A stretch of DNA of 64,000 nt from Thermoflexia bacterium (GCA_011192125.1 DUEL01000055.1:5770-69769), one strand, 5' to 3'; shown: positions 20,268-51,886, counted from the first letter of the stretch. Translations and numbers: made by a program. The notes: generated from the sequence alone by a model not told the origin.

Positions 20268-20290
20268 AGGGTGTCGCCCTGGAGCGGAAT

Positions 20291-21417: not shown

Positions 21418-22398
21418 GTGAGAGACCTGATTCGCAAACTGACTGAGACCTATGGCCCTTCGGGCTTTGAGGATCGTATCCGTGCGGTGATCCGGGAGGA
21501 GGTCGAGCCGCTGGCCGACGAGGTGCGGGTAACGCCGCTGGGCAGTCTGGTGGCGGTGAAGAAAGGCACCGGCGGGGGCCGGCGGATCATGCTGGCGGCC
21601 CATATGGACGAGATCGGTGTGATGGCCAGCCACGTGGACGACAAAGGGTTCCTCCGCTTCACTGCCATCGGTGGCGTCAACCCTCTTACCTGCGTCGGAG
21701 CGCGGGTGCAGTTCGAGGACGGGACGTTGGGGGTGATCGGCGTTGAGGGGAAGCGGGAGGATCGGACGAAGGCCCCCCGCCTTGATCAGTTGTACATCGA
21801 CGTGGGGGCGACGGGTAAGGATGACTGCCCTGTGCGGGTTGGGGACGCGGCCGTCTTCGTGCGGCCCTTCGCGGTCCGGGGCACGCGGCTCATCGCTAAG
21901 GCAATGGACGACCGGATCGGCTGTGCAGTGCTGATCGAGACCCTGCGGCGGTTGGAGGGGACGTCCAACGAGGTGTATTTCGTGTTCAGTGTACAGGAGG
22001 AGACCACCCTTTCCGGGGCGCGGACGGCAGCTTATGGGATCGAGCCCGATCTGGCGATTGCGGTGGACGTGACCGGGACGGGGGACACGCCGGAGGCACG
22101 GCCGATGGCGGTGGAGTTGGGCAAGGGTCCGGCGGTGAAGGTGCAGGACCGGGGGATGATCGCCCATCCGCTGGTGCGCGACCTGCTGGTGCGGGCGGCG
22201 GAAGCGGCGGGGGTGGCCTGCCAGATGGAGGTCCTGGAGCGCGGCACCACCGACGCGGCGGCGATGCAGTTGGTGCGGGCGGGTGTTCCCTCTGGCTGTC
22301 TTTCCATCCCTTGTCGCTACGTCCACACCCCCAGCGAGATGGTGGATGAGGGGGATGTGGAAGGGGCGGTGAAGGTATTGGTCGAAGCGGTCCGATGA
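21418..22398 (+). CDS. M42 family metallo-aminopeptidase, copy 3 (GTG start at 21418 preferred; ORF opens at GTG 21382)
   Basis: RDLIRKLTETYGPSGFEDRIRAVIREE aligns with N-termini of copies 1 and 2; HMDEIGVMAS, MDDRIGCAVL, VQEETTLSGA; GGGAG 7 nt upstream of 21418. Confidence 0.75.
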   Translation: MRDLIRKLTETYGPSGFEDRIRAVIREEVEPLADEVRVTPLGSLVAVKKGTGGGRRIMLAAHMDEIGVMASHVDDKGFLRFTAIGGVNPLTCVGARVQFEDGTLGVIGVEGKREDRTKAPRLDQLYIDVGATGKDDCPVRVGDAAVFVRPFAVRGTRLIAKAMDDRIGCAVLIETLRRLEGTSNEVYFVFSVQEETTLSGARTAAYGIEPDLAIAVDVTGTGDTPEARPMAVELGKGPAVKVQDRGMIAHPLVRDLLVRAAEAAGVACQMEVLERGTTDAAAMQLVRAGVPSGCLSIPCRYVHTPSEMVDEGDVEGAVKVLVEAVR

Positions 22399-23210
22399 GA
22401 TCGGTGGAGCGGTTGAGCGAACTCTGGCGGTATCGGGAACTGATCTACAACCTGGTCATCCGCGACCTCAAGGCGCGGTACAAGAACTCCATACTGGGCA
22501 TCGCGTGGTCGTGGCTCAACCCGCTGATGATGATGGTGGTCTACACCGTCGTCTTCAACGTCCTTGCGGGCCGCTCCGGGATTCCGGACTACCCGGTCTT
22601 TCTTCTCTCGGCGCTTCTGCCGTGGAACCTGTTTGCCAACTCGGTCGCTGAAGCGACCAACAGCGTCGTCCAATCCGCCCCGCTGATCAAGAAAGTGTAC
22701 TTTCCTCGGGAGGTTCTTCCCATTTCCGTCGTGCTGGGTAACGCAGTGCACTTCGTGATTAGCCTCCCGGTCTTCTTTGGGTTAGCCCTGGCGATGGGAC
22801 GGCCGATCAGTGGGTGGGTACTTTTGTTGCCTGTGACTCTCCTCGTTCAAATCGCGTTCACGCTGGGGGTCGGGCTCATCACGGCCACGTTGAACGTCTT
22901 TTATCGGGACACCTACCTGATAATGAACGTCCTGCTCACGGCGTGGTTTTTCCTGACCCCCATTTTCTATCCCATCACCACCGTCCCGGAGCAATACGTC
23001 CTCTGGGGGATTGTGTTCAACCCTCGGGTCTGGCTGCGCCGGCTGAACCCGATGGCTTCTATCATTGCCTCTTATCAGGACCTCCTCTACTGGGGCGCGC
23101 CCACCGGTTGGGACTTCTTCTTGCGGACAGCTGTGACGTCGGTGGTGGTCCTGATCGTGGGTTACCTGGTCTTCCTACGGTATAGTCCGAGGTTTGGGGA
23201 GGAGGTGTGA
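22395..23210 (+). CDS. wzm: ABC-2 type polysaccharide export permease (Wzm/KpsM/TagG family)
   Basis: ELIYNLVIRDLKARYKNSILGIAWSWLNPLMMM signature and 6 TM helices; 4-bp overlap with M42 copy 3. Confidence 0.8.
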   Translation: MRSVERLSELWRYRELIYNLVIRDLKARYKNSILGIAWSWLNPLMMMVVYTVVFNVLAGRSGIPDYPVFLLSALLPWNLFANSVAEATNSVVQSAPLIKKVYFPREVLPISVVLGNAVHFVISLPVFFGLALAMGRPISGWVLLLPVTLLVQIAFTLGVGLITATLNVFYRDTYLIMNVLLTAWFFLTPIFYPITTVPEQYVLWGIVFNPRVWLRRLNPMASIIASYQDLLYWGAPTGWDFFLRTAVTSVVVLIVGYLVFLRYSPRFGEEV

Positions 23211-23261
23211 AGAGCAAGGCCTCGCTCTAGATCTGCAAGAGTAGCTTTGGGTTGGGACGAG

Positions 23262-23759
23262 TCAGTCTGGTAGATCTATAGCAACCTCCCCCAAATCAGT
23301 GATTGCCCCCGCTTCAACGGTTACTAGAATATCCAGACCTGTTTCCGGATCAGTGACCACCCACGAATTCCCCGGAGTCCAAATCACCAGTGCATATGTA
23401 TCTGGCTCGACGTCTAGAAAGGCAAAATAACCGTTCTTGTCAGTTGTGGTGCTTGGGGATGAGCTTGGCAGCATTGTGATAATGTGGGACCCGGGGGCCC
23501 CCTCCAGGGGAGATAGTTCGCCTAGATAGATGACCATTTCCACCGCAGGCTCTCCGGAGATATAATCAACAAATCGGCCAGTGATTATCCCTTTGTCGAC
23601 TGGTGGATTAGGGAGTGGGGTCGGGCGGGTCCCCGTGGGAGTGGCAAGGGGGCTGACGTATAGGGGCGATTCGAAGGTCAACTCGGGAGTTGGTCTGACG
23701 TTGCAACCGGATAGACCTATGATTAGGATCGGTAAGATTGCGATGGTCAGACGTTTCAT
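23262..23759 (-). CDS. Lipoprotein with carboxypeptidase-regulatory-like beta-sandwich domain
   Basis: Lipobox ILIIGLSGC; DKNGYFAFLDVEPDTYALVIW pattern; start set at ATG 23759 with GGAGG RBS (upstream ORF part is read-through of the hairpin). Confidence 0.5.
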   Translation of the reverse strand: MKRLTIAILPILIIGLSGCNVRPTPELTFESPLYVSPLATPTGTRPTPLPNPPVDKGIITGRFVDYISGEPAVEMVIYLGELSPLEGAPGSHIITMLPSSSPSTTTDKNGYFAFLDVEPDTYALVIWTPGNSWVVTDPETGLDILVTVEAGAITDLGEVAIDLPD

Positions 23760-23778
23760 GCGTGTACCTCCATCTATT

Positions 23779-23820
23779 ACGCACTCGAAGGCCACCAACC
23801 CTGGTGGCCTTCGAGTGCGT
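23779..23820 (-). terminator. Perfect 19-bp inverted repeat with 4-nt loop between convergently ordered minus-strand genes; terminator or processing/regulatory hairpin
   Basis: acgcactcgaaggccacca-accc-tggtggccttcgagtgcgt; 18 nt after the stop of 23839..25167 and ending just before the RBS of 23262..23759; no U-tract follows. Confidence 0.4.
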
Positions 23821-23838
23821 TGTCAGTGAGATTGAACT

Positions 23839-25167
23839 TTACTGCCCGATACCGTTGTAGGCATAGAGCTGATCCATTATCTGATCACGCTCGGGTGCCT
23901 CGTTCATATCCTCGTTGACTACGCAGACGATGGGTTGTGTCGAGGTTATTGTGGCCGAGCCAATGAAACCATCGCTCAGCAGGGAGTCGGCGGGCTGGTA
24001 GAATAGGTGAATTCCGTTTACAGGGATTGATGGAGAGGTCGTTGTCCCGCTAATGCCGCCATAGGATATGGACATTGTGGCAGAGGCGGTGCCGATGTTC
24101 TGACAGGTGATGCTGGTGTTGTACTTGTAGTAACGCCGCATCACGATTGGAGCACGCACAGTGGTGCTGCCACTTGTGAAGCCGGAGTAGCTGGCCGCAC
24201 GGTTCTTGTCGGTTGACTCGTTTACCAGCACCGCAAGAGGTTGTCCGTTGGTGCTCTCGATCTTGGCACCGGTCAGCAAGCCGGTGGCTAGCCCTTCAAG
24301 CGGTGTGTAACGGCTGTCCGCTGCACCGGGGGGGATCGTCGTATACTTCACTGTGCCGTCGGAGTAGGTGATCTTTACATTCGCATCGGCTGTGCCCATG
24401 TTCTGGATCACAAGTGCGGTGTTGTAACCGTAGTAGTTGTTCATGATCACTGGCGCGTAGGCAACGGTGGAGCCGCTGGAGAAGGGGTTGTATGAGTAGA
24501 GCTGGTCATCATAGGGCCCCCTACCGTAAATGTTTACAACGGCTGCAATGTTCCCCGTGCCGATGATTTTGGCCGAGTAGAATTTGTTGTCGGCGAGCTG
24601 GGCTAGTCCTTCTTGTTCAAAAACGACAAAGCCGTTGGCCGGCACGTTGGTTCGAGTGTCCGTATAGACCGGGGTGGAATTACCGGGTTCATAGATCTCC
24701 AACGTGATATCGATCGTACTACCACTGGCGTTCTGTACAATCACGTTGGAGTAGTAATTGTAGTAATTGTCGTAGATACCGGGTGCGTACAAGGTAGTGG
24801 CGACCTCGCTGCCGCTTATACCACTGTAGCTTGCCCCGCTGTCCGGATCGCTGAAGTTTACGACGGCTGCTACTTCTTGGTCACAGCTGACCACACCAGC
24901 GTATTGTCCATCTGCTACTGTGGTGTCGCTCGGTACGTAGATGTAAGCACTTTCACCTGCGGGGATCGGCGAGAGGGCGCCACTGGAGTACACCTCGTTG
25001 CCGTTGGCGTCATAGAAGCTGAAGACGCAGTTTGCATCCTGAGTCCCCAGGTTCTGAATACGGAACGCTGTATTGAAGGGCCCTTCAGGTGCTGGCGCAT
25101 CGGCGTTGACAGCAACTGGAAGTGTCAGCAGGAGTATGATCATCACGAGGGGTATGTACTTTTTCAT
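23839..25167 (-). CDS. Secreted protein with four internal repeats of about 105 aa (beta-rich, Tyr/Asn/Ser/Thr-rich), possible cell-surface or S-layer-associated
   Basis: Signal peptide MKKYIPLVMIILLLTLPVAVNA; repeat cores NYYNYYSNVIVQNASGSTIDITLEIY / NNYYGYNTALVIQNMGTADANVKITY / RRYYKYNTSITCQNIGTASATMSISY; AGGAGG RBS. Confidence 0.55.
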   Translation of the reverse strand: MKKYIPLVMIILLLTLPVAVNADAPAPEGPFNTAFRIQNLGTQDANCVFSFYDANGNEVYSSGALSPIPAGESAYIYVPSDTTVADGQYAGVVSCDQEVAAVVNFSDPDSGASYSGISGSEVATTLYAPGIYDNYYNYYSNVIVQNASGSTIDITLEIYEPGNSTPVYTDTRTNVPANGFVVFEQEGLAQLADNKFYSAKIIGTGNIAAVVNIYGRGPYDDQLYSYNPFSSGSTVAYAPVIMNNYYGYNTALVIQNMGTADANVKITYSDGTVKYTTIPPGAADSRYTPLEGLATGLLTGAKIESTNGQPLAVLVNESTDKNRAASYSGFTSGSTTVRAPIVMRRYYKYNTSITCQNIGTASATMSISYGGISGTTTSPSIPVNGIHLFYQPADSLLSDGFIGSATITSTQPIVCVVNEDMNEAPERDQIMDQLYAYNGIGQ

Positions 25168-25255
25168 CTTTTAAACCTCCTTTGCCTGATAGGTCGCCCG
25201 CTTAGACGATTTGAAGATATCATAACGGAGGAATTAGCCCTCGGTCAATACTCCT

Positions 25256-26263
25256 TTAGGGGTAATGCTGTGTGTCTCGTTGATCACGTCCAAGTATTCG
25301 TGCTGTGATCCACATTAGCCCACCCCACACCAAGTCGCTAGCGATAAAGAGTACGCGTAGCAGCAGGGCCACCAGCAAAGCCCCGGCAATGGGCAGATTT
25401 GGACTCAGCAGGGCCGTTAATGTTAGTTCTCGGATCCCCATTCCTGCTGGTATGATTATTGAGGTTAAGAAACTGATTCCTCCTGTTAACGCCCATATGC
25501 GTACGGCATCACCCAGGGTTATTCCAGACGTCGGTGCCACGCTATGCGCCAGCAGGAACAGGATTAGCCCCCCGATGACATAAGCAACTGCATACAATCC
25601 CATCCATAGTGCTAGCTCCCTCCATTGTGGTGGATCAAGACTAGAGAGGTTCACAAGCACCTGTCGTAAGGGTCTGGGTAGCCGGGTTTCATCCTGCGTC
25701 GACCAGCGGAGTCTCAGACGTTGAAAGCCGGCCGCGATGAGCACGACAGCAAGGAAAGAGAAAGCGAGGCTTGCTAGCCATGAACTGTGGAGAGGAAGGC
25801 TCAGAGCACTATATATCACCATAGCTATCACTAGTAGCAGCAGCCATTCCAACCCGCTAGCGGCTAGGGTCACATGTGTTTCAATACCCTGCTCGTAGTA
25901 TCGCATCGCTCTTCCGGCCAAGTACCAAGGTGCACCAGGTAGGCGGCGCATAAGGTGGGTGTAGGCATAGATCTCGATGTCACGCCATCTACTCTCCTTT
26001 GGTCCCAGTCTTGCTATCATCATACTCCAGGTCAGGGCCTGGAGGCTTAACGATAGAGGATAGATGAAGAAGCCTCGTGCACAGGCAGCTAGATATGCTT
26101 GCCAATTATCGAATTGCTGCAACTCCTTGTATCCGTAAATGAGTAGGGCGAGGAGGAACCCGACAGAGAGAAAAAGCACTCCCGCGCTTATCCATCGTTG
26201 GAGGCGGGGGTTTTCCCGAAGTATGGACCACTTCTCCAGCAGATTGTGCAATTTTTCCCTCAT
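25256..26263 (-). CDS. Flippase-like polytopic membrane protein (UPF0104 / lysyl-PG-synthase TM-region family)
   Basis: 8 TM segments; family commonly paired with GT2 enzymes; ATGA overlap with methyltransferase upstream. Confidence 0.5.
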   Translation of the reverse strand: MREKLHNLLEKWSILRENPRLQRWISAGVLFLSVGFLLALLIYGYKELQQFDNWQAYLAACARGFFIYPLSLSLQALTWSMMIARLGPKESRWRDIEIYAYTHLMRRLPGAPWYLAGRAMRYYEQGIETHVTLAASGLEWLLLLVIAMVIYSALSLPLHSSWLASLAFSFLAVVLIAAGFQRLRLRWSTQDETRLPRPLRQVLVNLSSLDPPQWRELALWMGLYAVAYVIGGLILFLLAHSVAPTSGITLGDAVRIWALTGGISFLTSIIIPAGMGIRELTLTALLSPNLPIAGALLVALLLRVLFIASDLVWGGLMWITARILGRDQRDTQHYP

Positions 26264-27231
26264 AGTGTTCTGTCGCTATGCCGTTTCCGGGCAAACAGGG
26301 TGATGAGAGAGGAGAGGCGGGCACGGCTGATCATCCAGAACAGGGGTGCGAACGCTAGTCGGAGCGGCATAGTATGTCCTAACCGCAGTATGTGTCGGGG
26401 CCAGCGTGCTGGTGGGGGATACCGGTCCTCCAGGTAGAACCGTAGGCTCATCAAGAAGGCTGAGTAGCTCGTGGCAATGCACTGGAGTCCTTCCACTGTG
26501 AAGCCTAGTTCGGAGAGCGCAGCCGCCAGTGCCCGCCGGGGAAAGAGATAGAGGTGGCGGGGTAGATCCCAACCTAGCCAGAGAGGACCAAACCAGCGAG
26601 CTTCCGGGCTCTCCAGGTTGGGAATCCGGATGACTAGCAACCCCCCGTCTACTAAAAGGCGATGTATCTCTCTGAGGTCAGCCCACGGGGTATGTAGATG
26701 CTCGAGCACGTCCCATAGCGTGATGACGTCAAAAGACGCACTGGGCAAGCCAACCTGACCTAGCCGTCCGACGCGGACATCTAGTCCAAAGCGCTGTTGG
26801 GCATAGCCAGCGGCGGCAGGATCAGGTTCTATGCCGACCACCTCCCATCCAGCTAATTGCATTTCGTGAAGGAAGATGCCAGTGGCACAGCCGACGTCCA
26901 AGAGCCGTCCTTTGGGCTGCAAACGCTCAATTGACCGGCGTCGTTTGAGAATACCGTAGCGGCGGTCCCATCGACGCCACCATACGGGTTCGTCTTCTAT
27001 AGCCTGGATAAAGTTAATATAATCGGGGGGGTAGTAGAAACCGATGGTTTCGACGGTAGGGCGAGGGTTCTGGCGAATCCAACCACATTGCAGACACTCA
27101 ACTACCCGAAAGATGCCCGGCAGGCGATGTAACCGATCGGGTCCTTCGAATAGTTCTCGTTCCTCAGTCGATCCGCAGTGGTCGCATGGGACGAGCTCAG
27201 ACTCTACACCAGGCGGAAACCATGGGCTCAT
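26260..27231 (-). CDS. Class I SAM-dependent methyltransferase with N-terminal Cys4 zinc ribbon
   Basis: CDHCGS...CLQCG zinc ribbon; LLDVGCATGIFLHEM motif I; Methyltransf_11/23-like. Confidence 0.7.
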   Translation of the reverse strand: MSPWFPPGVESELVPCDHCGSTEERELFEGPDRLHRLPGIFRVVECLQCGWIRQNPRPTVETIGFYYPPDYINFIQAIEDEPVWWRRWDRRYGILKRRRSIERLQPKGRLLDVGCATGIFLHEMQLAGWEVVGIEPDPAAAGYAQQRFGLDVRVGRLGQVGLPSASFDVITLWDVLEHLHTPWADLREIHRLLVDGGLLVIRIPNLESPEARWFGPLWLGWDLPRHLYLFPRRALAAALSELGFTVEGLQCIATSYSAFLMSLRFYLEDRYPPPARWPRHILRLGHTMPLRLAFAPLFWMISRARLSSLITLFARKRHSDRTL

Positions 27232-29630: not shown

Positions 29631-30830
29631 TTATGCTCTCTCATACCCATAGATACGAGTGAAATCGTGCACTAGTCTATCCCAATAGAACCGCTCTCGG
29701 ATCGCCAGTGCTTCGGCGGAGAGGCGATCTCTGAGTGGTTCATCCCTCAAGAGAGCTATCATAGCCTCGGAGAGCGCAACTGGGTCCCCAGGCGGAATTA
29801 GCAAACCGCCTCCGTGTGCTAATATCGTGGCTCGGTCTCCCACGTCTCCAGTGATTACCGGGGTGCCTGCTGCCAGGCTCTCCACCACCTTGAGGGGATA
29901 GCGACCATGTTCTGCTAATGTTCCTCGCACGGGATCAACCGAGACTTCGGCCAAGCGGTAATAGAGAGGCACTTCATCGGGGGGAACTCGGCCTAAGAAG
30001 AGCACTCTCCTTAGCCCTAATGCTTGGGCTTGGCGTTGTAGCTTTTCGTAGTCTTCTCCGCCCCCCACCAATATTAATATCGCTCGGCCCTCAGCGCGCT
30101 GGACGAGTGCAAACGCTTCCAGTAGCAAGTCTACAGCATGATTGGCCAAACTGAGGCTTCCTACATAGACTATGACCTTCCGATCCTCCAATCCCAGGCG
30201 GCGGCGGGCTCTCTCGATGTCCACGTCCTTTATAGCGGAAAACCGCGTACGATCTACGCCGTTGGGAACATAGACGATGCGGTCCCTTTGGCATCCTAGC
30301 TGCACCAAGCGTTCAGCCATAAAACGGGTATTAACGGTGACACCAGCCGTAATCCGAGGGAGGGAATTCTCAAAAAAGGCCACTATTCTGCGTTGCCAAC
30401 TCCCGCTGAAGCGGTTGGAGGCAGCTTCGTAATCGTCGCAGTCGAGATAAACTGGCTTTCCTAGCAAGAGGGGTGGCAAGAGAGCCAGTCCGTTCATCGG
30501 ATGAGGTTTGCAGATGTGATATACATCGGTTGGTGTTAACAAAGCGGCCTTCGTCAGCCGTAAGGTGGCTAAGGTAGAGACCAGTATTAGCTGGATTGGC
30601 CCAAAGTAGAGTTTTTGATTGCCTACTTTCCGTACGTGCATCTGCCCGACGTAGTGAACCCTGACACCTCCCTCCACATATTCTTGCTGTTGCAGCGTTT
30701 GAAAGTTGTGGTGCAGTGCCAAGAGGGTCACCTCGTGCCCGAGCCGCACTAACTCCTTGGACAGGGGCCAGTAGCGTCCCAATCCGGACGGACTTTCGAG
30801 GCTCTGCGTGAGCAAGAAAGTGATTCTCAA
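29631..30830 (-). CDS. Glycosyltransferase family 4
   Basis: MRITFLLTQSLESPSGLGRY GT4 N-domain; C-terminal GGGE...E GT4 motif region. Confidence 0.75.
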   Translation of the reverse strand: MRITFLLTQSLESPSGLGRYWPLSKELVRLGHEVTLLALHHNFQTLQQQEYVEGGVRVHYVGQMHVRKVGNQKLYFGPIQLILVSTLATLRLTKAALLTPTDVYHICKPHPMNGLALLPPLLLGKPVYLDCDDYEAASNRFSGSWQRRIVAFFENSLPRITAGVTVNTRFMAERLVQLGCQRDRIVYVPNGVDRTRFSAIKDVDIERARRRLGLEDRKVIVYVGSLSLANHAVDLLLEAFALVQRAEGRAILILVGGGEDYEKLQRQAQALGLRRVLFLGRVPPDEVPLYYRLAEVSVDPVRGTLAEHGRYPLKVVESLAAGTPVITGDVGDRATILAHGGGLLIPPGDPVALSEAMIALLRDEPLRDRLSAEALAIRERFYWDRLVHDFTRIYGYERA

Positions 30831-31927: not shown

Positions 31928-32021
31928 CTCTTATACCCCGGGTTCCGAGACAGGATCCATCGCTTCGCTTACGGCCCAAGGAGGTAGACTTGGAATGGCC
32001 CAATGGCCTCTCGCTTAAGCA

Positions 32022-36856: not shown

Positions 36857-36870
36857 ACTTCTGCTTATGC

Positions 36871-37629: not shown

Positions 37630-37659
37630 CGTGACTGCCTCGTGAGTCGCCTGTTGTCT

Positions 37660-37688
37660 TTGACCACAAGGGTATACTATGTTAAAAT
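37660..37688 (+). promoter_or_regulatory. Sigma70-like promoter for GT2 gene 37704 (TTGACC-17-TAAAAT)
   Basis: ttgacc acaagggtatactatgt taaaat; about 15 nt before ATG 37704, which lacks an SD. Confidence 0.3.
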
Positions 37689-37703
37689 TTCCAGAAGTCA
37701 AAC

Positions 37704-38627: not shown

Positions 38628-38629
38628 TT

Positions 38630-39649: not shown

Positions 39650-39707
39650 AGTGGGGCATATCTGTGTTCGTGTGTGTCTGAGGTATGCTGTGTAAGGAGA
39701 TAAGGGT

Positions 39708-41678: not shown

Positions 41679-41683
41679 TTTAA

Positions 41684-42493: not shown

Positions 42494-42504
42494 CGTTGTA
42501 GGGC

Positions 42505-43488: not shown

Positions 43489-44844
43489 GTGCCGCACCTT
43501 CCAACGCGCATACTCGTGTAGCTGGGTGACAATGCCTCTCGCACCTCCCAGTCGCAAGGCTCGCCAGCCTTTTTGTAGCAGCCGTCGCCAACCTCCCCAT
43601 TTCCCTGAAGGGATTACCCCCCCTATGGGATACCCCTTGTCAGGTGCGGTGTAAGGGGCGGCGCAGAAATCCGCTAGCGGCTTCACAACGATATCCCATC
43701 GGTAATTTTTCGCTACTTCCTGTATGCGGTCCCGACGCTCCTGACAGTCGATCGGGTCTCTCAATACATCCAAGATGGCTCGAGCTACCCCTTCGACGTC
43801 ACCAGGTGCGACCAGTGTAGCCAGCCCCTGGGCAGCCAGTGTCTCCCCCATCACGTCGCCGACCGTCGCGACAATGGGCAGTCCTGCCCACAAGTAGTCC
43901 AGCAGGCGTGTTCGGAAGGCAAAGCGTGTTTCTACATGATCCAGATGCAGGCTGACGCCCACGTCTGCCTCAAGCAGGTAGTTCTGGCGCTCGTCGTAGG
44001 GGACCCAGTCGTTGAAGAAAATATGGGTTCCGTACAGCCCCATTTCCTTACTGAGCGCAATAGCCTGCTCTACCGCTGTTGTCCGCGCACGCTCCTGGTT
44101 GGAGCGCTTGATGCCCATGAAGAAAAGCTTAACGTCGTCACGATGGGCTAGTATACGTGGCATAGCCTTGATCATTGTTGGTGCGTCGAACCATTCCCAA
44201 ATGCCCCCGCCCCACAAGATAACCTTGTCGTGAGGCTGGATGAAGGGAGAAACTCCCTTCAGGACGGGGTGGGTGTGCTGTGGCGGTTCTGCAGGCAAGC
44301 CGAAAGGCACAACAGCGATCAGTCGGCGCAACGAGGGGTCGTCTTGATAGGTATACGGGTTGACGCGCCCCGCAGCCGAGAGCATACCTAGCCAGTAATC
44401 CCGCTGTTTCTCACCTGCGCAGATAAAGAAATCGCCCGCGCGCAGCTGGAGCCAGAGCGCTTCAAGATAATTCTCATACGAAATGAGACGGTCCAGCCAG
44501 TCCATATGGGCCTTACGTTGCAGATCCTCTAACAAGAAAGGATCGTAAAGGTCCACCACCAGGGGCTTTCCAGATTCGGCCACGAATGGGTAAAGAAACA
44601 GCACAACCCCCAATGTCACAACCACATCGCAGTCCTCGACCAGTGCGCGCAACTCCCGCACTGTAGGGCAGATCCGAAGCCAATCTTCGCCAGAGGGTGG
44701 GGTTTGGGGGGCAATGAAGGGCGGTACTGCCAGGGTGACATCAAAGTGCTGGCCCAGCGCGCGCGTTAGCTCCCAGTAGCGGATGCCGGGGCCGGCCATG
44801 TTCTTGCCCACGATGTCGTTGCATATAAGAAGAACCCGAGTCAT
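43483..44844 (-). CDS. GT-B glycosyltransferase (GT4-like)
   Basis: MTRVLLICNDIVGKNMAGPGIRYWELTRAL N-domain; C-terminal GLPIVAT...E motif; ATG 44844 chosen (ORF opens GTG 44853). Confidence 0.55.
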   Translation of the reverse strand: MTRVLLICNDIVGKNMAGPGIRYWELTRALGQHFDVTLAVPPFIAPQTPPSGEDWLRICPTVRELRALVEDCDVVVTLGVVLFLYPFVAESGKPLVVDLYDPFLLEDLQRKAHMDWLDRLISYENYLEALWLQLRAGDFFICAGEKQRDYWLGMLSAAGRVNPYTYQDDPSLRRLIAVVPFGLPAEPPQHTHPVLKGVSPFIQPHDKVILWGGGIWEWFDAPTMIKAMPRILAHRDDVKLFFMGIKRSNQERARTTAVEQAIALSKEMGLYGTHIFFNDWVPYDERQNYLLEADVGVSLHLDHVETRFAFRTRLLDYLWAGLPIVATVGDVMGETLAAQGLATLVAPGDVEGVARAILDVLRDPIDCQERRDRIQEVAKNYRWDIVVKPLADFCAAPYTAPDKGYPIGGVIPSGKWGGWRRLLQKGWRALRLGGARGIVTQLHEYARWKVRHL

Positions 44845-45100
44845 ATTCCTCACTCTATTTCCTATTTCTACTGCGGAGCTAATTATACCACTAGGCTACT
44901 CGCCATCAACATGATATGGGGAGGTGCTCAAGGTATTCGAATCAGAAGCGTAGGACAGCATCTCTCCACGACATATCGGTTTATCGGCTCACTGCTATCA
45001 CGGGGGAACAATTATGTGCCGGAGGCGCATCGCACCTGCGACAGGGGCTATAATGGGAGGGACAGGACGGCTTATTGCTTGACACAAGCACTAGGCGGCT

Positions 45101-45128: not shown

Positions 45129-45189
45129 CTGGACCATTCAATCGGGGTGAAGATCGGTAGCGCATCTTAGCGTCGAGGGTGGAGAGGCG

Positions 45190-48144
45190 ATGCCTTTCTC
45201 TGTTTATTTTATCAGCGGTTGCAAGGCTGGCACCACTTTTGAATACCGCGTCTTGCAAAAACAGGAGCAATTGGCCGCGTATGGTATCCCCAGCCTGGCA
45301 CGGCAGGAGCTGGTCGACCGCGAGCAACTCCTCCAAGAGGCAGCGTCCCATGATGTGCTCTATCTCTATCGCATTGCCTATGGTCCCCTCATCGAAGATC
45401 TGATTGAGCAAGCGCGCGGGCAGGGTATTCCTGTTGTCTTCGACATAGATGATTTGGTGTTCGAGCCCGAATTGGTTCACTGTGTGGATCCTGTTAGAGC
45501 GATGGATCACGAGGAGGCGGCCCTCTACTATAAAGGCGTTTGGCGCTACCGCCGCACGCTCCTGGCCAGTGATGCGGTTGTTACCTCCACCGGGTATCTG
45601 GCAGAGAGAGCGCGCGCTCTGGGCAAACGGGCCTTTGTGCATCGTAACGGCCTCAGCAGGTGGATGATCGAAGAAGCATCTCGTCTGGTTGAGCAGCGTC
45701 GAACGCAATCGAACTCCGAAAGGGTGATCATCGGGTATGGCAGTGGTACAGCTACCCATCGTAAGGATCTGGCCGAAGCAGCCGAAGCGCTAGGGGAGAT
45801 TATGGCCCGCTATCCCTATGTCGAACTGCACATTGTGGGTGCGCTCCACCTCAGCGATCCATTGCCTTTGCCAGATGAACTCAAACCATTCGCCGACCGC
45901 ATTCGGCATCGCCCCGCCGTGGCCTGGCGGGACTGGCTCGCTGTGCAGAGTAGCTTCGATATCAATCTTGCCCCTCTGGAATCCGGCAACCCCTATTGTG
46001 AAGCCAAGAGCGAGATCAAATACACTGAGGCAGCCATCGTAGGTGTGCCGACCGTCGCCAGCCGCACTGGCGCCTTCGAGTTCGCCATCCGCGACGGCGA
46101 GACCGGGTTCCTGGCTGGTGACACCGATGAGTGGGTGGCTAAGCTGGAAGCATTGGTGACCGACGCACCGCTGCGCCAGCGGATGGGGGAAGCAGCTCGT
46201 CTCGATGTGCTCGCCCGATACACGCCGGAGGTGCTGGGGAAGCAGTTGGTGGAAACGTTGACTACCATTCAGACCTTCCACCATCAAACCCGTGCGGCGG
46301 TTTCGATCCCTGGCACAGCCGAGGCCCCTCTGATTCTGAACTGGATCTTTCCGGAGCCAATCCCCGGCTCCGGTGGGCACAGGAACATTGTTCGGATGAT
46401 CAACCTGCTGGCCAGTTTCGGTCATCAGGTCAACGCCTACATTGTACCGCGCTACCACCTGTGGGACAAAAGTGATCTGGAGGTGCGCGCGTTCGTGCGT
46501 CGTCACTTCACCGACCTTGACGCCGGGGTTTTCAAATGGGCTGGCGGGCCAATGGTTGAATCGGACGCGGTTGTCCTGACCCACTGGTCCACGGCCTATC
46601 TAATCGACAATGTTAGGAACACCTCGAAGATCTTCTACTTTGTGCAGGATTGGGAGCCCTTCTTCTTCCCGATGGGAACCGACTACCTGCGTGCGGAACA
46701 GACCTACAAAATGGGCTTTTCTTGCATCACTCTCGGGCGCTGGTTAACCAAGCGGCTGCGGGAGTGGTACAACGCCGACGCGGACTATTTCGACCTGGCG
46801 GTGGACCACCATATCTACTACCCTCGTCCGGTTGAGAAAGCTGACCATCCTCGTATCTGCTTCTACGCCCGCCCCTCTACCCCTCGTCGTCTCTTCCCAA
46901 TCGGGATTGAGGCGCTTGAGCGGATCCACCAGCGCCGTCCAGATGTAGAAATCGTTCTCTATGGCACTGAGGATGCGGAACTGTGCCAATATGAGATCTC
47001 GTTTCCTTACACGAATCGAGGTATCCTCACAGAGGAGGAACTGGCTGAGCTGTTCTCAGCCTGCGAGGTGGGCATAGTCCTCTCCCCCACCAATTGTTCC
47101 CTGATCCCTCCGGAGATGATGGCCTGTCGTTGTGCCGTGGTGGACCTGAACCGGGAAACGGTGATGGGAGTGCTGGAGCATGAGGTCAACGCGCTGCTGG
47201 CGGAGCCGACGCCGGAGGCTATCGCTGAGGCGGTGCTGCGCCTGCTGGAAGACGAGCCACTGCGCCAACGGCTGGTGGAGACGGCCTATCGACAGATGCA
47301 GGAGCGCTCTTGGCTCAAGTCGGCGCGGAAGGTGGAGGAGATCTTGTACCGGAAGTTGCCCGCGATGCGCCGAGGGCTTGCCCCGCATCGTTTCAAAATG
47401 CTCCCAAATCTGCCCGCGCTGGGCGGTTTACCCGAGGATCAGCAATACCGCCTGAACATCATCCACGCCGCCCGGCGGCGGGTGTTCGCGCAGGGAAAAG
47501 CCGTCCTCTGGGCGTGGTGGGAACGGATTCTGAGGACGGTCCGACGTGTGACGCTGAACGGAGCGACAGTGCGGCCACTGGGTGAGCTAACGGGTCGACG
47601 GCAGATTGGGCAGCACTTCGTTGCCCGACGGGATGGACTCTATCGGGTGGATGTGCTAGTCGACACCTACGGCCGCTGCAACACACGCGATATCATATTT
47701 CGCCTCAGGGAGTCTCCCACTGCCGAGGATGATCTGGCAACCGTGCGCGTCAACGCCAGCCTGCTACTCGACCGGGGGTATGTCAGCTTTGCCTTCACTC
47801 CCCTGACTGACTCAGGTGGCAAATCCTACTATTTTGTCATCGAGTCGCCGGAATCAGTGCCGGGGGACGCGATCACTCTATGGGCATACCGTGATGCCGA
47901 TGTGCCGGGTGCAGAGCTGGAGTGGAACGGGCGCACCATCAGCGGGCATCTGGTCTTCGGGTTGTTCTATTGGGATGAGCGGGTGGGTGTCGTGGGAGAG
48001 CGTCCCCTCTTACACGAATGGAGCGGAGGGATCACTTTCTTGGATCGGCTGAAAAAGGGCTTGCACGTACTTGCGGTTCAGGGGCTGAAAGGGCTGCAGC
48101 GTGAGGTGGTGAACTACTGGAAGTGGAAGACCGGGCGAGTATGA
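45190..48144 (+). CDS. Large multidomain glycosyltransferase (at least two GT-B modules plus C-terminal domain); N-terminal module paralogous to 49235..50611
   Basis: 984 aa; N-terminal 100 aa align with gene 49235..50611 (YxxxxxxGxxxxxxYRxxxxQEQLAxxGIP...DxDDLVFxPEL); central WsaF-like Rossmann module; RBS GGAGAGG. Confidence 0.55.
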   Translation: MPFSVYFISGCKAGTTFEYRVLQKQEQLAAYGIPSLARQELVDREQLLQEAASHDVLYLYRIAYGPLIEDLIEQARGQGIPVVFDIDDLVFEPELVHCVDPVRAMDHEEAALYYKGVWRYRRTLLASDAVVTSTGYLAERARALGKRAFVHRNGLSRWMIEEASRLVEQRRTQSNSERVIIGYGSGTATHRKDLAEAAEALGEIMARYPYVELHIVGALHLSDPLPLPDELKPFADRIRHRPAVAWRDWLAVQSSFDINLAPLESGNPYCEAKSEIKYTEAAIVGVPTVASRTGAFEFAIRDGETGFLAGDTDEWVAKLEALVTDAPLRQRMGEAARLDVLARYTPEVLGKQLVETLTTIQTFHHQTRAAVSIPGTAEAPLILNWIFPEPIPGSGGHRNIVRMINLLASFGHQVNAYIVPRYHLWDKSDLEVRAFVRRHFTDLDAGVFKWAGGPMVESDAVVLTHWSTAYLIDNVRNTSKIFYFVQDWEPFFFPMGTDYLRAEQTYKMGFSCITLGRWLTKRLREWYNADADYFDLAVDHHIYYPRPVEKADHPRICFYARPSTPRRLFPIGIEALERIHQRRPDVEIVLYGTEDAELCQYEISFPYTNRGILTEEELAELFSACEVGIVLSPTNCSLIPPEMMACRCAVVDLNRETVMGVLEHEVNALLAEPTPEAIAEAVLRLLEDEPLRQRLVETAYRQMQERSWLKSARKVEEILYRKLPAMRRGLAPHRFKMLPNLPALGGLPEDQQYRLNIIHAARRRVFAQGKAVLWAWWERILRTVRRVTLNGATVRPLGELTGRRQIGQHFVARRDGLYRVDVLVDTYGRCNTRDIIFRLRESPTAEDDLATVRVNASLLLDRGYVSFAFTPLTDSGGKSYYFVIESPESVPGDAITLWAYRDADVPGAELEWNGRTISGHLVFGLFYWDERVGVVGERPLLHEWSGGITFLDRLKKGLHVLAVQGLKGLQREVVNYWKWKTGRV

Positions 48145-48171
48145 GGAGGCGCCTGTGACGGGTCCTCCCAA

Positions 48172-49224
48172 TCAGAGAGCCTGCCGCCTAACGTCGAACC
48201 GTTTCGCTACCCTGTTTAACCAGTTCAGCAGGCGCATCACGCGGCCCCGACTGATTTGATCGAGTAACTCCCTATACCGCTGAAGCATGAGACGCAGCTC
48301 GTGCGTTTCATACTCCCGCACCCAACGATAGTAGGTGCTCATATCCATAGGAGTTATATCTCCAGAGGCGGCCTCTGGTGGTTGGGGGCCACCAGGATAC
48401 TGGAAATTAAGGGGATATCCCCAAACCGCCATCTCCGGGCCGCAAATCCTGGCAAGCACTTGTTTCTGTTCGCGTGTCCAATCCACAGGATAGAAGAAGT
48501 CTCCGACATCTTTTTCGGGAAAAGCCGTGTTCTCCCGCCGTGATTTGAACACATCGGCGACGGCCTGACTCCACTCGGGCACCCCCAGGAAATCAGTCAC
48601 TCGACGCGCGACTTGGCCAGGTTCGGTCACAATGTGCTCCTGCGCGACCTCAATGTAACGTCCGGTTAAAAGGGGTCGGACCTGGCGCCACATTTTCATC
48701 ACTGCGACCCAATGCTTGCAGGTAGAGAGGAACACTGCATCCACATTGGCTTTGCTATCGTGGTTTCTCTGCATGTAGGCGATCGTTGAGTTGACGGTGG
48801 TGATCGCGTTACGTTTCATGAAAATGAACTGGGCCTGTGGGAATATCTCTGCCAGCATTGGGGCAACCAATACCGCATCCACACCGGGGGACTTGCTTAC
48901 CCAGCGCACGCACTCGGGTGGCAACTGATCACGGTGGAATTGATCAATCAGCAGCGCTATCTGACGCTCCAGCAGCAGGTTACGCCCCGCTCCCAGTGCA
49001 AAGATCTCCTCACGGAGGTGCGCCTTATACTCGGGATCGCGCCACCACGCGAGCGGCTTAATCAGATCATACCACAGATGATCCTCTGGAAACCCGAAGA
49101 ACCCGGCTACACGCAGGGCTCGCCACATAATCGAGGTGCCTGTGCGCTGTCGACCGAGGATAAAAATCGGGTCGAGTTGCCGCCACTGTGCTTCTATTTC
49201 ATCCATCCCTGGTATTTGCCCCAT
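48172..49224 (-). CDS. Sulfotransferase family protein with C-terminal amphipathic helix/coiled coil
   Basis: 5'-PSB-like P-loop ILGRQRTGTSIMWRAL; 3'-PB-like region; C-terminal ...DQISRGRVMRLLNWLNRVAKRF. Confidence 0.5.
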   Translation of the reverse strand: MGQIPGMDEIEAQWRQLDPIFILGRQRTGTSIMWRALRVAGFFGFPEDHLWYDLIKPLAWWRDPEYKAHLREEIFALGAGRNLLLERQIALLIDQFHRDQLPPECVRWVSKSPGVDAVLVAPMLAEIFPQAQFIFMKRNAITTVNSTIAYMQRNHDSKANVDAVFLSTCKHWVAVMKMWRQVRPLLTGRYIEVAQEHIVTEPGQVARRVTDFLGVPEWSQAVADVFKSRRENTAFPEKDVGDFFYPVDWTREQKQVLARICGPEMAVWGYPLNFQYPGGPQPPEAASGDITPMDMSTYYRWVREYETHELRLMLQRYRELLDQISRGRVMRLLNWLNRVAKRFDVRRQAL

Positions 49225-49234
49225 CTCTCACTCG

Positions 49235-50611
49235 CTAGCCCTGGATATTCCGTCCTGCGGCTCGTCGCCATAGGCGTTGGAGGCTCGTTAACAACCGCAT
49301 CACGCGGCCTTGCATTATAGCCTCGATAGTCTGCTCGAGGTCGGCTATCCGCTGCTCCGCCCTCATCAATCCAGCCTCGTAACTCCGCATAGCCTGCCGC
49401 AGTCCCTTGATCTGTTCCTCTTGCTCTCGGATCTGTTGTTGTATCTCACTCGCGTATCGCTCGACGCCTGCAATGAAGATATGCCACAGCTCGTTCTTGT
49501 TAGCCGGAGGGCCGCCGTACTGCTGGCGGATGTCGCTCAACGTGGCCCACAGCTCCTCAGCCCGCCGTTCGGGCGTGTAGCGGGCGTACACGGTGCGGCG
49601 GGCAGCCTCGCCCATCTCCCGGCGTCGTTGAGGGTGGTCCAGCAACATCTGTAGAGCTTCACGCCACTCGTCGGGCGAGTTGACAAGCAGGCCGTTGCGC
49701 CCGTGGGCAATAGCATACTCATAGGCTTCCGCACGGCTAGCCACAGTGGGTACTCCCACCAACGCTGCCTCGACGAACTTGATCTCGCTCTTGGCCTGGC
49801 AGAAGGGATTATCTGTCTCCAATGGCACTAGGTTGATGTCGGCCTGAGCGATAACATGCGGTAACTCGCGCCAGGTCATATAGGGCGTACGGCGGATGCG
49901 GGACCGAAGCGGTTCGAACGCCGGGCTCAACTCTAGGTAGCCGCCGATGTGCAGCCAGACCCAGGGGTAGGTGGACATCACCCATACGAGCGGTTCAGTG
50001 ATGGTTTGAAAATCACGGTTGTGGGAAGCGGTACCGCTGAAATAGCCAATGACAACGGGCCGTGCCGCGTTGCTCTCCTCAAGACGGCGCTGCCGTTCAG
50101 CCCACGCTTGCTCAGAGATGCGGAACATCTCGGCGTTAGGGGCGTTGCGGTTGACATAGGCTGGCTTGCCCCGTCGCCGCGCCTCCTCTGCCAGGAACTC
50201 TGTCGTAGTGAGCACACAGTCGCAATGTTGAAAGGTCTCTTCCAGCCGTGCCAGGTCCGCTCGAAAGCGGCGCGCTACCTCCGGAGGGAGTGTGTCTACC
50301 AAGCCAATATGCGCATATAGCTCGGGGTCGAAAACGAGGTCGTCCGTGTCAAAGATGACAGGCTTACCCTGAGCGTGAGCGAGCTCGATGATCAGACCGA
50401 CCAGCGGGCTGAACGGCACGCGGTGTAGTATGAAGACATCGTAGTCGAAAACATCTGTTAGTAACTGCGGGTCGTCGTCCTCGCGCAGTGATGTGGGTAC
50501 GCCTTTGAGAGCTAGCTGTTCTTGTTGATGGATGCACCGATAGCGGCGCGTATCACCGCCTATTCCACTGATGAAAAGTACCTTGAAGGCCTCCGCCTTC
50601 GTTGTTGTCAT
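49235..50611 (-). CDS. GT-B glycosyltransferase with about 70-aa C-terminal coiled coil
   Basis: GT4-like core (KSEIKFVEAALVGVPTVASR); C-terminal heptad-rich EIQQQIREQEEQIKGLRQAMRSYEAGLMRAEQRIADLEQTIEAIMQGRVMRLLTSLQRLWRR; ATG 50611 with GGAGGGG RBS. Confidence 0.55.
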   Translation of the reverse strand: MTTTKAEAFKVLFISGIGGDTRRYRCIHQQEQLALKGVPTSLREDDDPQLLTDVFDYDVFILHRVPFSPLVGLIIELAHAQGKPVIFDTDDLVFDPELYAHIGLVDTLPPEVARRFRADLARLEETFQHCDCVLTTTEFLAEEARRRGKPAYVNRNAPNAEMFRISEQAWAERQRRLEESNAARPVVIGYFSGTASHNRDFQTITEPLVWVMSTYPWVWLHIGGYLELSPAFEPLRSRIRRTPYMTWRELPHVIAQADINLVPLETDNPFCQAKSEIKFVEAALVGVPTVASRAEAYEYAIAHGRNGLLVNSPDEWREALQMLLDHPQRRREMGEAARRTVYARYTPERRAEELWATLSDIRQQYGGPPANKNELWHIFIAGVERYASEIQQQIREQEEQIKGLRQAMRSYEAGLMRAEQRIADLEQTIEAIMQGRVMRLLTSLQRLWRRAAGRNIQG

Positions 50612-50653
50612 AATGTTCAACCCCTCCACTGCACCGCTGTTGTCGCACGCCCG

Positions 50654-51886
50654 TCAAGTGGTCCTTTTGCTTTTTCCTTCCCCTTCCCACACCCATTCTC
50701 CCCGCAATGTCAGAATGCCAAACCGTTCCCCATCCGAAGGTAGCACCCGAAGGGGGTACAACCGGTTATGATAGTCGTATATTTCTGTATCCTCCCAATC
50801 GTGAGCGGAGACGGAGAGGTAGTAGAGACCCTTTAGGAGGGGCAAAGCCGGGACGATGTATCGCACCGTTCCTTCCCCTTCTACCCAGGGGATCTCTAGG
50901 CCTGCGAACCGGGTGTTCGGCCCGGTAACGTGGACTCCGTCGCTGCGGTGGATGGCCAGGCCAAAGATCGGCCGCTCTACTCGCTCCTGGGCTTGATACC
51001 GCATCTCCACCACCAGGGGCTCTCCTACTCGGAACTGTTGCCTCTCCTGGCCCTCGCCATCTAACAAGCGGACAGCGATGATCTTTATCTTGCCACTTCC
51101 CCAACGGCGGCTATCTCCCCTAGCGGCGTGAAGCCGCCCCTTCTCTGCTGCCCAGGTGCGGTCCAGATACCGCAGTACCACTCCCTCGGCGGGGCCATCG
51201 TCCACCAGTTGGCCCTGGTCCAGCCATATGGCTCGAGAACAGATGGACCGGACGGCCTCTGGGGCGTGGGACACGAAGAGGATGGTCACCCCTTGCCGCC
51301 GCAGGTCATCTATCCGCTCCAGGCACTTGCGCTGGAAGGCTGCGTCTCCCACTGCCAGTACCTCGTCCACTAGCAGAATATCTGGCTCAGTGTGGACGGC
51401 GACGGAGAAGCCCAGCCGCACGTACATCCCGGAGGAGTAGTGCCTCACCGGCACATCGATGAACCGCTCCAGTTCGGCGAAACCGATGATGTCATCCAGT
51501 TTGCGGCGGATCTCCGCTCGGCTCAGGCCCAGGATAGAACCATTGAGGTAGATATTCTCCCTGCCGGTCAGGTCCGGGTGAAAGCCTGCACCCAATTCCA
51601 GAAGAGCCCCAACCCGTCCATCTACGACGATCCGGCCGGAGGTAGGCTCGATGATGCGGGAGATCAGTTTAAGGACAGTGCTCTTGCCTGCTCCGTTGGG
51701 GCCGATCAGCCCCACCGTCTCCCCCTGCTCGACGGTGAAACTCACATCCCGCAACGCCCAGAACTCCTCCCGGGAGTGCTCGTTACGGCGAAGGAGATGG
51801 AGGGCCAGCTCCTGGAAGGAACGGGCCCTCTCGTGGTGAAGTGTGAATCTTTTGGAGACACTCTCAAAACGGATTGCCACACTCAA
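50654..51886 (-). CDS. wzt: ABC transporter ATP-binding protein for polysaccharide export with C-terminal carbohydrate-binding domain (Wzt/TagH-like); TTG start
   Basis: Walker [10 protein letters not shown], signature LSGGM-type region, Walker B ILLVDE; about 150-aa C-terminal extension typical of Wzt O-antigen-binding domain; GAGGA RBS before TTG 51886. Confidence 0.8.

Follow-up and report, generated by a model that had tools for sequence, protein, structure and literature searches.

In the present study, we analysed a stretch of 64,000 nucleotides from a Thermoflexia bacterium (GCA_011192125.1, DUEL01000055.1:5770-69769), called here the window, in which a glycan island (22395-51886) is bounded by wzm and wzt, the genes for the permease and the ATPase of an ATP-binding cassette (ABC) exporter. 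The region is a real ABC-transporter-dependent locus for the assembly and export of an envelope glycan, with a carbohydrate-binding domain in its Wzt, and the type of system is already known. An earlier reading of the same DNA, made without database searches (the sequence-only reading), had called this type, and the domain content bears it out. Taken as a whole, the island is probably the assembly and export part of an ABC-dependent envelope-glycan system in which wzm and wzt are cognate but unlinked, and whose priming block was formerly contiguous and has been inverted away.

Exporter proteins

The carbohydrate-binding domain of Wzt was found by Pfam at residues 259-390 (Wzt_C, PF14524, 103.9 bits against a cutoff of 30.4). 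In the AlphaFold2 model, made with 36 homologues, the C-terminal part is a β-sandwich with a predicted local distance difference test score (pLDDT) of ~90. A Foldseek search with this model placed full-length Aquifex aeolicus Wzt chains on top, 8dku_A with E 7.6e-40 over 390 aligned columns that cover both domains. The same chain was the best match of the sequence in the PDB (E 7.7e-74, residues 37-372, running through the carbohydrate-binding domain). The nucleotide-binding domain is 44% identical to that of A. aeolicus Wzt, and the best PDB match of Wzm is A. aeolicus Wzm (6m96_B, E 4.4e-24). The glycan-binding extension that the sequence-only reading had given to Wzt is thus seen by Pfam, in the predicted structure and by Foldseek, and the Wzt_C fold of the model leaves that call uncontradicted. 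The Wzt sequence is identical to NCBI HEY76458.1, and the close homologues all come from metagenome-assembled genomes (MAGs) of Anaerolineae, Thermoflexia and other Chloroflexota. No published description of Wzm/Wzt in Chloroflexota was found in the literature. In a subgroup of Chloroflexota Wzt homologues (P0081, P0088, P0091, P0094 and similar), ~55% identical to the window Wzt, the proteins have 580-627 aa and therefore ~180 extra residues beyond the nucleotide- and carbohydrate-binding domains.

Linkage of wzm and wzt

For comparison, 80 genomic loci around Wzm homologues and further contigs were fetched, and all proteins of the window were mapped on them (loci are cited by their L numbers). 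In the window, wzm and wzt are 27.4-28 kb apart, on opposite strands and in separate transcription units. Linkage was counted in loci that extend 1.5 kb or more on each side of wzm (mostly 10 kb). Where Wzm is at least 60% identical, 13 loci have no wzt nearby, 1 has it adjacent and 0 have it 4.5-4.9 kb away; the corresponding counts are 15, 6 and 0 at 55-60% identity, and 7, 15 and 2 at 50-55%. Seen from the other gene, no ABC-2 permease was found within 6-10 kb of Wzt homologues of 73-77% identity in five independent lineages (L081-83, L084, L085, L092 and L093/94). Unlinked wzm and wzt are therefore the usual state in this part of Chloroflexota and no anomaly of this genome, and in more distant Chloroflexota the ancestral arrangement is an adjacent pair. 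The sequence-only reading had held the two genes to be normally adjacent, which is not true of this lineage. In the S-layer-glycan (slg) clusters, by contrast, the two are neighbouring genes whose codons overlap (PMC2943079).

The strongest evidence available on the relation of the two genes comes from L088, where wzm and wzt are 175 bp apart and encode proteins with 73% (Wzm) and 70% (Wzt) identity to their counterparts in the window. Because this adjacent pair resembles both, the window Wzm and Wzt are very likely cognate, as judged by their sequences, and orthologues of a working pair rather than unrelated halves. This orthology, together with the match of both proteins to the same PDB complex, also speaks indirectly for a putative Wzm2Wzt2 complex of the window proteins. 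We have considered whether wzm and wzt could be unrelated orphan halves, each with its partner encoded elsewhere, so that their positions at the ends of the island are coincidental. The distance, strands and transcription units would agree with this, as would the small part of the genome open to inspection (64 kb) and the orphan wzm genes of relatives, which often lie amid housekeeping genes with one glycosyltransferase as the only glycan gene. Such a coincidence is nevertheless improbable, since, besides the L088 pair and the shared best solved homologue complex, many adjacent pairs at 46-58% Wzm identity are the next-closest relatives of both proteins. Furthermore, the same conserved genes accompany both wzm and wzt in relatives (GT2a, DUF6541, FG-GAP and the GT4e type), and no alternative partner was seen in the window, nor at a distance of up to 10 kb from any orphan homologue. 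In the whole 64-kb window, there is no other gene of the Wzm-type (ABC-2 permease) or Wzt-type ATPase, and a PADLOC scan gave only generic ABC ATPase matches.

Priming block and a probable inversion

Within 22395-51886, Pfam found no priming phosphoglycosyltransferase. Such a gene, of the WbaP type, lies in a left block before the island, followed by three genes for conserved membrane or exported proteins (A488, A499 and A257; Table 1). Homologues of these four genes (67, 58, 69 and 44% identical) are found in L081-L083 directly upstream of MNT-HepT-wzt, and the genes at 8550-13679 are functionally part of the same system as the island. The limits that the sequence-only reading had set for the locus are thus incomplete, as they leave out the priming phosphoglycosyltransferase and the nucleotide-sugar genes at 1-13.7 kb.

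A promoter-like element of the form TTGGCGTTTC-N8-TGTGTTATCATGCAAC is present in exactly two copies in the window, inverted to each other, where 0.01-0.03 copies per window would be expected by chance. Copy B gives wzt, the first gene of a wzt-glycosyltransferase-sulfotransferase operon, a promoter-like element of its own, and downstream of copy A no gene follows. A related motif with two mismatches was seen in the equivalent spacer of L081, upstream of MNT-HepT-wzt, and one with three mismatches between wzm and wzt in L088. In addition, relics of HepT were found downstream of copy A and at the start of wzt. The first (13840-13947) aligned locally to the HepT of L084 and L085 with scores of 64 and 69 (null 27-28 ± 4-5; reached by 0/500 dinucleotide shuffles), and the non-coding part of the second (51870-51911) scored 35 (null 21 ± 3.3; p = 0.002). 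A relic of MNT downstream of copy A was marginal (p 0.03-0.07) and is not claimed. In three separate Chloroflexota lineages, wzt is directly preceded by a toxin-antitoxin pair of MNT (nucleotidyltransferase) and HepT genes, the latter of which runs into the start of wzt (L081 9291-9988, L084 9201-10023 and L085 9204-10023).

The inverted promoter and HepT copies that bound 13729-51945 point to the scar of a ~38-kb inversion with duplicated breakpoints. Either staggered breaks or recombination between inverted copies of a promoter and toxin-antitoxin cassette would leave the same pattern. With the inversion undone, the priming block would be joined to wzt, as it is in L081, and the inversion would account for the 8.7 kb of housekeeping genes (GlpD-like, FAD oxidase, S58 and three M42) that now interrupt the glycan genes. 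The inversion signature at 13.7 kb and 51.9 kb, together with the ancestral adjacency in more distant Chloroflexota, could also be taken to mean that the split itself is a recent accident, in which a local rearrangement tore an adjacent wzm-wzt operon apart. This explanation is largely refuted and in our view highly improbable. Both genes lie inside the inverted segment and remain 28 kb apart when it is turned back, and the inversion was therefore rejected as the cause of the split. Moreover, L086 and L087 keep the order of three M42 genes and wzm, L079 has the conserved set of genes that converge on wzm, the same gene order is found in other samples of the species, and 13 of the 14 close wzm loci and the five wzt lineages are unlinked.

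Neighbourhood of wzm

The permease gene is a core-genome gene that ends a conserved array of M42 aminopeptidase genes (M42a-M42b-M42c-wzm): its third-codon-position GC content (GC3) of 0.79 is like that of the backbone, and the array is kept in close relatives. The stop of M42c and the start of wzm overlap in ATGA (22395-22398). Of the two closest species-level relatives, L086 (Wzm 84%) has the same order with the 4-bp overlap, and L087 (Wzm 78%) has the order with an 84-bp gap before wzm. Downstream of wzm in L087, and convergent with it, lies a glycan cluster of quite another make-up. Contigs of the same species from three other samples (including L090 and L091) have the gene order of the window. 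It is plausible that wzm is co-transcribed with the M42 array, an arrangement kept across a short evolutionary distance. None of the 80 more distant loci has an M42 gene near wzm, so a functional link between protease and export is unproven. In these loci, wzm usually comes after a GT4 gene or a homologue of the GT2 gene at 34587-35561, and housekeeping genes such as priA may follow. Hence, of the coupling to which the sequence-only reading had attached a joint expression of protease and glycan export, the overlap and its array stood, but the protease-export link is unproven: the M42 coupling is a short-range syntenic feature, and we saw no sign that aminopeptidase and glycan export are tied functionally.

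On the other side of wzm, the association is probably an old one. In L079 (a Promineifilaceae MAG, Wzm 46%), the genes for the lipoprotein, p442, p335, MT1 and the fusion of a UDP-galactopyranose mutase (UGM) with a GT2 have the same order and orientation, convergent on wzm; the lipoprotein homologue adjoins wzm and the p442 homologue (49%) is at the same position. Conservation of this order at 46% Wzm identity indicates an old association of the module with wzm.

A short-period repeat tract like one coding for Pro/Thr, with units of the CCGACGCC type, was seen at 18748-19040, after the S58 peptidase gene and before the catalytic part of M42a. The open reading frame (ORF) of this first M42 gene has a long N-terminal extension, which is probably not real, or else a low-complexity linker.

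Gene content of the island

By ORF listing and Pfam scans, exactly 20 genes lie between wzm (+) and wzt (-), which agrees with the coordinates of the pair and the approximate number of flanked genes given by the sequence-only reading. They comprise 11 glycosyltransferase (GT) genes of the GT-A/GT-B folds, 1 GT-C, 3 S-adenosylmethionine (SAM) methyltransferases, 1 Sulfotransfer_3, 1 FG-GAP protein, 1 repeat protein, 1 lipoprotein and 1 polytopic membrane protein of 335 aa. The twelve glycosyltransferases reported earlier are correct as a number of GT domains; as genes of the GT-A/GT-B folds there are 11, because the 984-aa protein carries two domains. Pfam confirmed all three methyltransferases, the sulfotransferase and the FG-GAP protein of that reading, and its GT-C-like membrane protein was upheld by the predicted fold and by Foldseek. 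Its repeat surface protein is a repeat protein with a signal peptide, for which Pfam gives only a weak CARDB match. Its flippase-like protein is unsupported: for the 335-aa protein, searches of Pfam, NCBIfam and PADLOC turned up no family.

Table 1. Positions of the features discussed (nucleotides from the first letter of the window; TM, transmembrane)
Feature	Position	Strand	Evidence or remark
Rest of low-GC left block: 11-TM protein, sulfatase, ADH/GFO oxidoreductase fusion, GT4, NAD epimerase/dehydratase, UDP-GlcNAc 2-epimerase	35-8494	+	
Priming phosphoglycosyltransferase, Bac_transf (WbaP-type)	8550-10019	+	213.5 bits
A488, A499, A257 (conserved membrane or exported proteins)	10009-11475, 11465-12964, 12906-13679	+	After Bac_transf
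Promoter-like element, copy A	13683-13716	+	4 nt past stop of the 257-aa gene (A257)
HepT C-terminal pseudogene fragment, degenerate	13840-13947	+	Last 36 residues of HepT, one in-frame stop; downstream of copy A
M42a, M42b, M42c (tandem M42 aminopeptidases)	18840-20213, 20201-21325, 21382-22398	+	Peptidase_M42, E 1e-85 to 1e-87 each
wzm, ABC-2 permease of glycan exporter	22395-23210	+	ABC2_membrane PF01061, 56.3 bits (cutoff 26.9), E 4.1e-15
Small lipoprotein, CarboxypepD_reg-like β-sandwich	23262-23759	-	Lipobox LSGC; weak Pfam matches
p442, secreted 442-aa repeat protein with signal peptide	23839-25167	-	Weak CARDB match; signal-like N-terminal TM segment
p335, 335-aa polytopic membrane protein	25256-26263	-	~7 TM segments by hydropathy profile
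MT1, SAM methyltransferase	26260-27231	-	Methyltransf_23, E 2.4e-30
UGM-GT2 fusion, 738 aa	27228-29444	-	Pfam Amino_oxidase, GLF, Glycos_transf_2
Two GT4 glycosyltransferases	29631-30830, 30827-31927	-	Glycos_transf_1, Glyco_trans_4_4
814-aa DUF6541 membrane protein, GT-C fold	32146-34590	-	AlphaFold2 model, pLDDT 83.8, predicted TM-score (pTM) 0.85
GT2 (GT2a) with two C-terminal TM helices	34587-35561	-	GC3 0.785; 4-bp overlap with GT-C gene
GT4 glycosyltransferase	35600-36928	-	
MT2, methyltransferase	36871-37701	-	
GT2	37704-38627	+	First of five-gene plus-strand block (37704-43488)
GT1/4	38558-39649	+	Same block
Secreted FG-GAP β-propeller	39708-41678	+	Same block
MT3, methyltransferase	41684-42493	+	Same block
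GT2	42505-43488	+	Last of the block
456-aa GT4-type glycosyltransferase (GT4e type)	43483-44853	-	
984-aa protein, N-terminal GT4 and WsaF-like domain	45190-48144	+	WsaF_N/WsaF_C, Glycos_transf_1 x2
PAPS-type sulfotransferase, third gene of wzt operon	48172-49224	-	Sulfotransfer_3, E 1.1e-17
464-aa GT4 beside wzt, ~95-aa coiled-coil-like tail	49235-50629	-	
wzt, ABC ATPase with C-terminal carbohydrate-binding domain	50654-51886	-	ABC_tran PF00005, E 1.1e-21; Wzt_C PF14524
HepT relic, last 14-15 codons	51870-51911	-	Overlaps wzt start as in relatives
Promoter-like element, copy B, of wzt (TTGGCG-17-TGtTATCAT)	51958-51991	-	~70 nt upstream of wzt

Among the enzymes, the UGM-GT2 fusion has its flavoprotein part at residues 2-337 and its GT2 at 432-661; the former is like a eukaryote-type mutase (PDB UGM 4dsg, E 2.6e-16), and the fusion of a UGM-like domain to a GT2 suggests galactofuranose. 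The 814-aa protein, whose DUF6541 label was taken from the names of its homologues, has a lipoprotein signal, an N-terminal β-sandwich like a carbohydrate-binding module (CBM), ~12 TM helices and a C-terminal domain. All 17 PDB matches of its model in Foldseek with E<1e-3 are GT-C enzymes (STT3, AftA, DPY19, ArnT and PglB). The GT2 at 34587-35561 is probably a polyprenyl-phosphate sugar synthase, as judged by its best NCBIfam matches (AglJ 116.6 bits, PpgS 82 bits, ArnC-type and dolichyl-phosphate hexose transferase), all under the curated cutoffs, and by its two C-terminal TM helices, which suit such a synthase. A homologue of 86% identity occurs in L085, and homologues of 61-74% adjoin wzm in five loci. 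FG-GAP homologues were found near wzm or wzt in L078, L079 and L084. The orthologue of the 43483-44853 GT4 is the commonest gene after wzt in relatives, with homologues of 37-49% directly after it in L040, L041, L045, L068, L081 and L084. The 984-aa protein matches WsaF in the PDB (2x0e, E 2.4e-10), its 265-aa C-terminal region matched no family, and its N-terminal domain shares 45% identity with the catalytic region of the 464-aa GT4, a paralogue. No informative family or PDB match was obtained for p442, the lipoprotein, A488, A257 and the 335-aa protein; p442 is a possible surface or acceptor protein.

Two observations concern p442. In L089 (same species, another sample), it is called at 1647-2977 as two ORFs of 146 and 293 aa; its C-terminal third is 95% identical to the window and the neighbouring genes are all 99-100% identical, which suggests local variation or a frameshift in this secreted repeat protein. 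Between the p442 and lipoprotein genes, an inverted repeat with perfect 19-bp arms, a 4-nt loop and no T-run (23779-23820) may form a stem-loop that modulates read-through.

One glycan or several

The island genes are organised in ~9 transcription units that run in both directions, and promoter-like sites occur in the intergenic gaps. Their GC3 is 0.54-0.73, as against 0.78-0.88 for backbone genes, with 0.70 for wzt. We regard the island as compositionally mosaic and partly horizontally exchanged. These features raise the question of whether the 28 kb hold two or more side-by-side glycan systems, only one of which uses the ABC exporter, for example a wzm-proximal galactofuranose/methyl module with secreted proteins and a wzt-proximal module. 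The number of transcription units and the mosaic GC3 (0.54-0.79) would suit this; the wzm-proximal module occurs without wzt in L079, and the wzt-proximal genes without that module in L081-L092. Furthermore, the phosphoglycosyltransferase of the left block and a weakly Wzy_C-like protein would fit a Wzy-type or ligase route. On the other hand, the window has no Wzx-type flippase and no second exporter, a single priming enzyme is present, and large single clusters for O antigen, S-layer glycan and rhamnan are also multi-operon and mosaic (PMC2943079). We therefore consider several systems possible but unlikely, and keep to a single ABC-dependent system as the better account of the island.

A further, rather doubtful proposal is that the exporter of Thermoflexia and Anaerolineae is deliberately modular, with wzm fixed at a core site (here the M42 operon) and exchangeable cassettes of Wzt, priming and GT genes elsewhere. 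If this were true, one channel could serve any, or several, of the Wzt/GT cassettes of a strain, which would amount to a serotype-switching logic unlike the self-contained O-antigen clusters of model bacteria.

Proposed pathway and chain terminus

By homology, the WbaP-type phosphoglycosyltransferase would prime a polyprenyl-phosphate carrier, on which the cytoplasmic GT2 and GT4 enzymes of the island, including the WsaF-like 984-aa protein, would lengthen the chain; the UGM-GT2 fusion would provide galactofuranose and join it to the chain. Methylation, and possibly sulfation, would follow, and one modification of the non-reducing end or a terminal residue would halt growth. The carbohydrate-binding domain of Wzt, whose presence and fold were found as above, would recognise this terminus, and Wzt with the Wzm dimer would export the lipid-linked polymer. 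Outside the membrane, the DUF6541 protein, with its GT-C fold, could add side-chain sugars from a polyprenyl-phosphate sugar that the translationally coupled GT2 (34587-35561) is predicted to make. Finally, a further enzyme would attach the glycan to a wall or protein acceptor. Given the oligosaccharyltransferase-like fold matches of the 814-aa protein (STT3 and PglB), this protein may instead carry out en-bloc transfer.

The chain-terminating cap claimed by the sequence-only reading is implied by homology through Wzt_C; no enzyme could be assigned to it. Candidates are the three methyltransferases, the sulfotransferase and the coiled-coil GT, none of which is assignable. WbdD of E. coli O8/O9a and WbbB of Klebsiella O12 are chain-length and termination proteins. 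The coiled-coil-tailed GT at 49235-50629 may be likened to them, as it lies beside wzt, where a terminator or molecular ruler might be expected, but it has no kinase, fused methyltransferase or Kdo-transferase domain, and the comparison serves as a lead only. Among the loci compared, a sulfotransferase next to wzt was not found in any other lineage. Across relatives, the carbohydrate-binding domain is ~65% identical and the nucleotide-binding domain ~79%, though the GT sets differ. Since the binding domain is conserved despite different GT sets, and a GT4 of the 43483-44853 type often follows wzt, sulfate seems a poorer candidate for the terminus that is recognised than a conserved terminal residue added by this GT4, or a methyl group.

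Several points weigh against our reading of the locus. It was made from sequence and models alone, for an uncultured MAG, and within ~64 kb of the genome, so that further copies of wzm or wzt are possible elsewhere. The many transcription units on both strands and the mosaic composition mean that the island may serve more than one glycan. The inversion is deduced from short relics, and an inversion polymorphism, sought in same-species contigs of other samples, was not seen, all being in the present orientation. No cap or cap enzyme was identified among the window genes, and relatives do not keep the sulfotransferase with wzt, despite the conservation of the binding domain given above. In the Aquifex Wzt domain, a 3-O-methyl sugar is bound in a pocket of Leu300, Thr346, Ala348 and Trp362 (PMC9445017); the window Wzt has A, S and S at the first three positions, and Trp362 falls outside the alignment. 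As these residues are not conserved, the ligand of Wzt cannot be inferred. The polyprenyl-phosphate sugar synthase call comes from matches that are all under the curated cutoffs. In the window, we identified neither a flippase for the lipid-linked sugar donor nor an acceptor, nor an attachment enzyme of the ligase or LCP type; in particular, Pfam and NCBIfam found no GtrA, MATE or SMR-type flippase there. Likewise, no WaaL ligase reached threshold in the window, the nearest hint being a sub-threshold Wzy_C match (E 0.0076) in the 11-TM protein at 35-1441.

Comparison with known systems

The closest sequence and fold match of both subunits is the WzmWzt O-antigen transporter of A. aeolicus (6M96, 7K2T and 8DKU; PMC9445017), whose Wzt likewise joins a nucleotide-binding domain to a jelly-roll carbohydrate-binding domain. 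By analogy, the same mechanism is expected here, in which the capped polyprenyl-linked polymer is recognised and then exported processively. The window system differs in that its identity is only 36%, its two genes lie on different strands with 28 kb between them, the 3-O-methyl pocket is not kept, and its host phylum has no lipopolysaccharide (LPS). Chloroflexota have been reported to be without genes for LPS biosynthesis and the β-barrel assembly machinery (BAM), and they stain Gram-negative yet are considered single-membrane, with outer envelope layers that are chemically unidentified (PMC13319060). The product is therefore probably no classical O antigen.

The slg clusters of Geobacillus stearothermophilus NRS 2004/3a and Paenibacillus alvei are like the window in coming from non-LPS bacteria, in combining WbaP-type priming with Wzm/Wzt export, in having a WsaF-like GT domain and methyltransferases as candidate chain terminators, and in a GC content below the genome average (PMC2943079). 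This slg-type set of a WbaP-type primer, Wzm/Wzt, a WsaF-like GT and a methyltransferase is complete in the window. Unlike the slg clusters, the window has no clear Wzy_C oligosaccharyltransferase, no rml genes and no identified S-layer target, and it has GT-C, sulfotransferase, UGM fusion and FG-GAP genes in addition.

Extracytoplasmic systems for post-polymerisation glycosylation (Gtr, GacI/GacL and the three-component pentofuranose systems; PMC11127046) decorate exported glycans with a polyprenyl-phosphate sugar synthase, a flippase and a GT-C. The TM-tailed GT2 that is translationally coupled to a GT-C-fold enzyme with a CBM-like β-sandwich may be an analogue, but here the GT-C belongs to the uncharacterised DUF6541, no flippase was identified, and the GT2 scores are under the curated thresholds. 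The mycobacterial galactan pathway (Glf, GlfT1/GlfT2 and Wzm-Wzt Rv3781/Rv3783; PDB 9QFX) shares with the window a UGM with GT2 enzymes, ABC-2 export and the lack of LPS. In the window, however, the mutase is fused to a GT2 and priming is of the Bac_transf type, and the mycobacterial Wzt chains of known structure, with 260-263 residues, leave no room for the carbohydrate-binding domain that the window Wzt carries.

Taken with ~90 related loci, the window holds a recurring Chloroflexota set that consists of WzmWzt with the carbohydrate-binding domain, Bac_transf and its three partners, the DUF6541 GT-C with its GT2, FG-GAP proteins and the GT4 that follows wzt. These genes are concrete candidates for the builders of the outer envelope layers of Chloroflexota. 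As to annotation, operon rules that expect, for example, wzm beside wzt will overlook ABC-dependent glycan systems of this lineage or score them wrongly. The split exporter is the normal state here. The locus is useful as a catalogue of envelope-glycan candidates from a phylum that has been little studied and adds no new mechanism on present evidence.

Other observations

The window holds both a sulfatase (1523-2845) and the sulfotransferase (48172-49224), a hint of a sulfated glycan; genes for the synthesis of 3'-phosphoadenosine-5'-phosphosulfate (PAPS) were not present in it. No Rfam family and no tRNA gene was found in a scan of the whole window. A gene of the GDP-mannose 4,6-dehydratase/dTDP-glucose dehydratase type (58616-59776, minus strand), 7 kb to the right of the island amid housekeeping genes, may be a source of a deoxy-sugar precursor. 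Tandem heptamer arrays of the form (ACGTCAY)n were seen at 20226-20270, 53094-53152 and 55571-55590, in intergenic spacers of the high-GC backbone (9 matches against 0.15 expected by chance).

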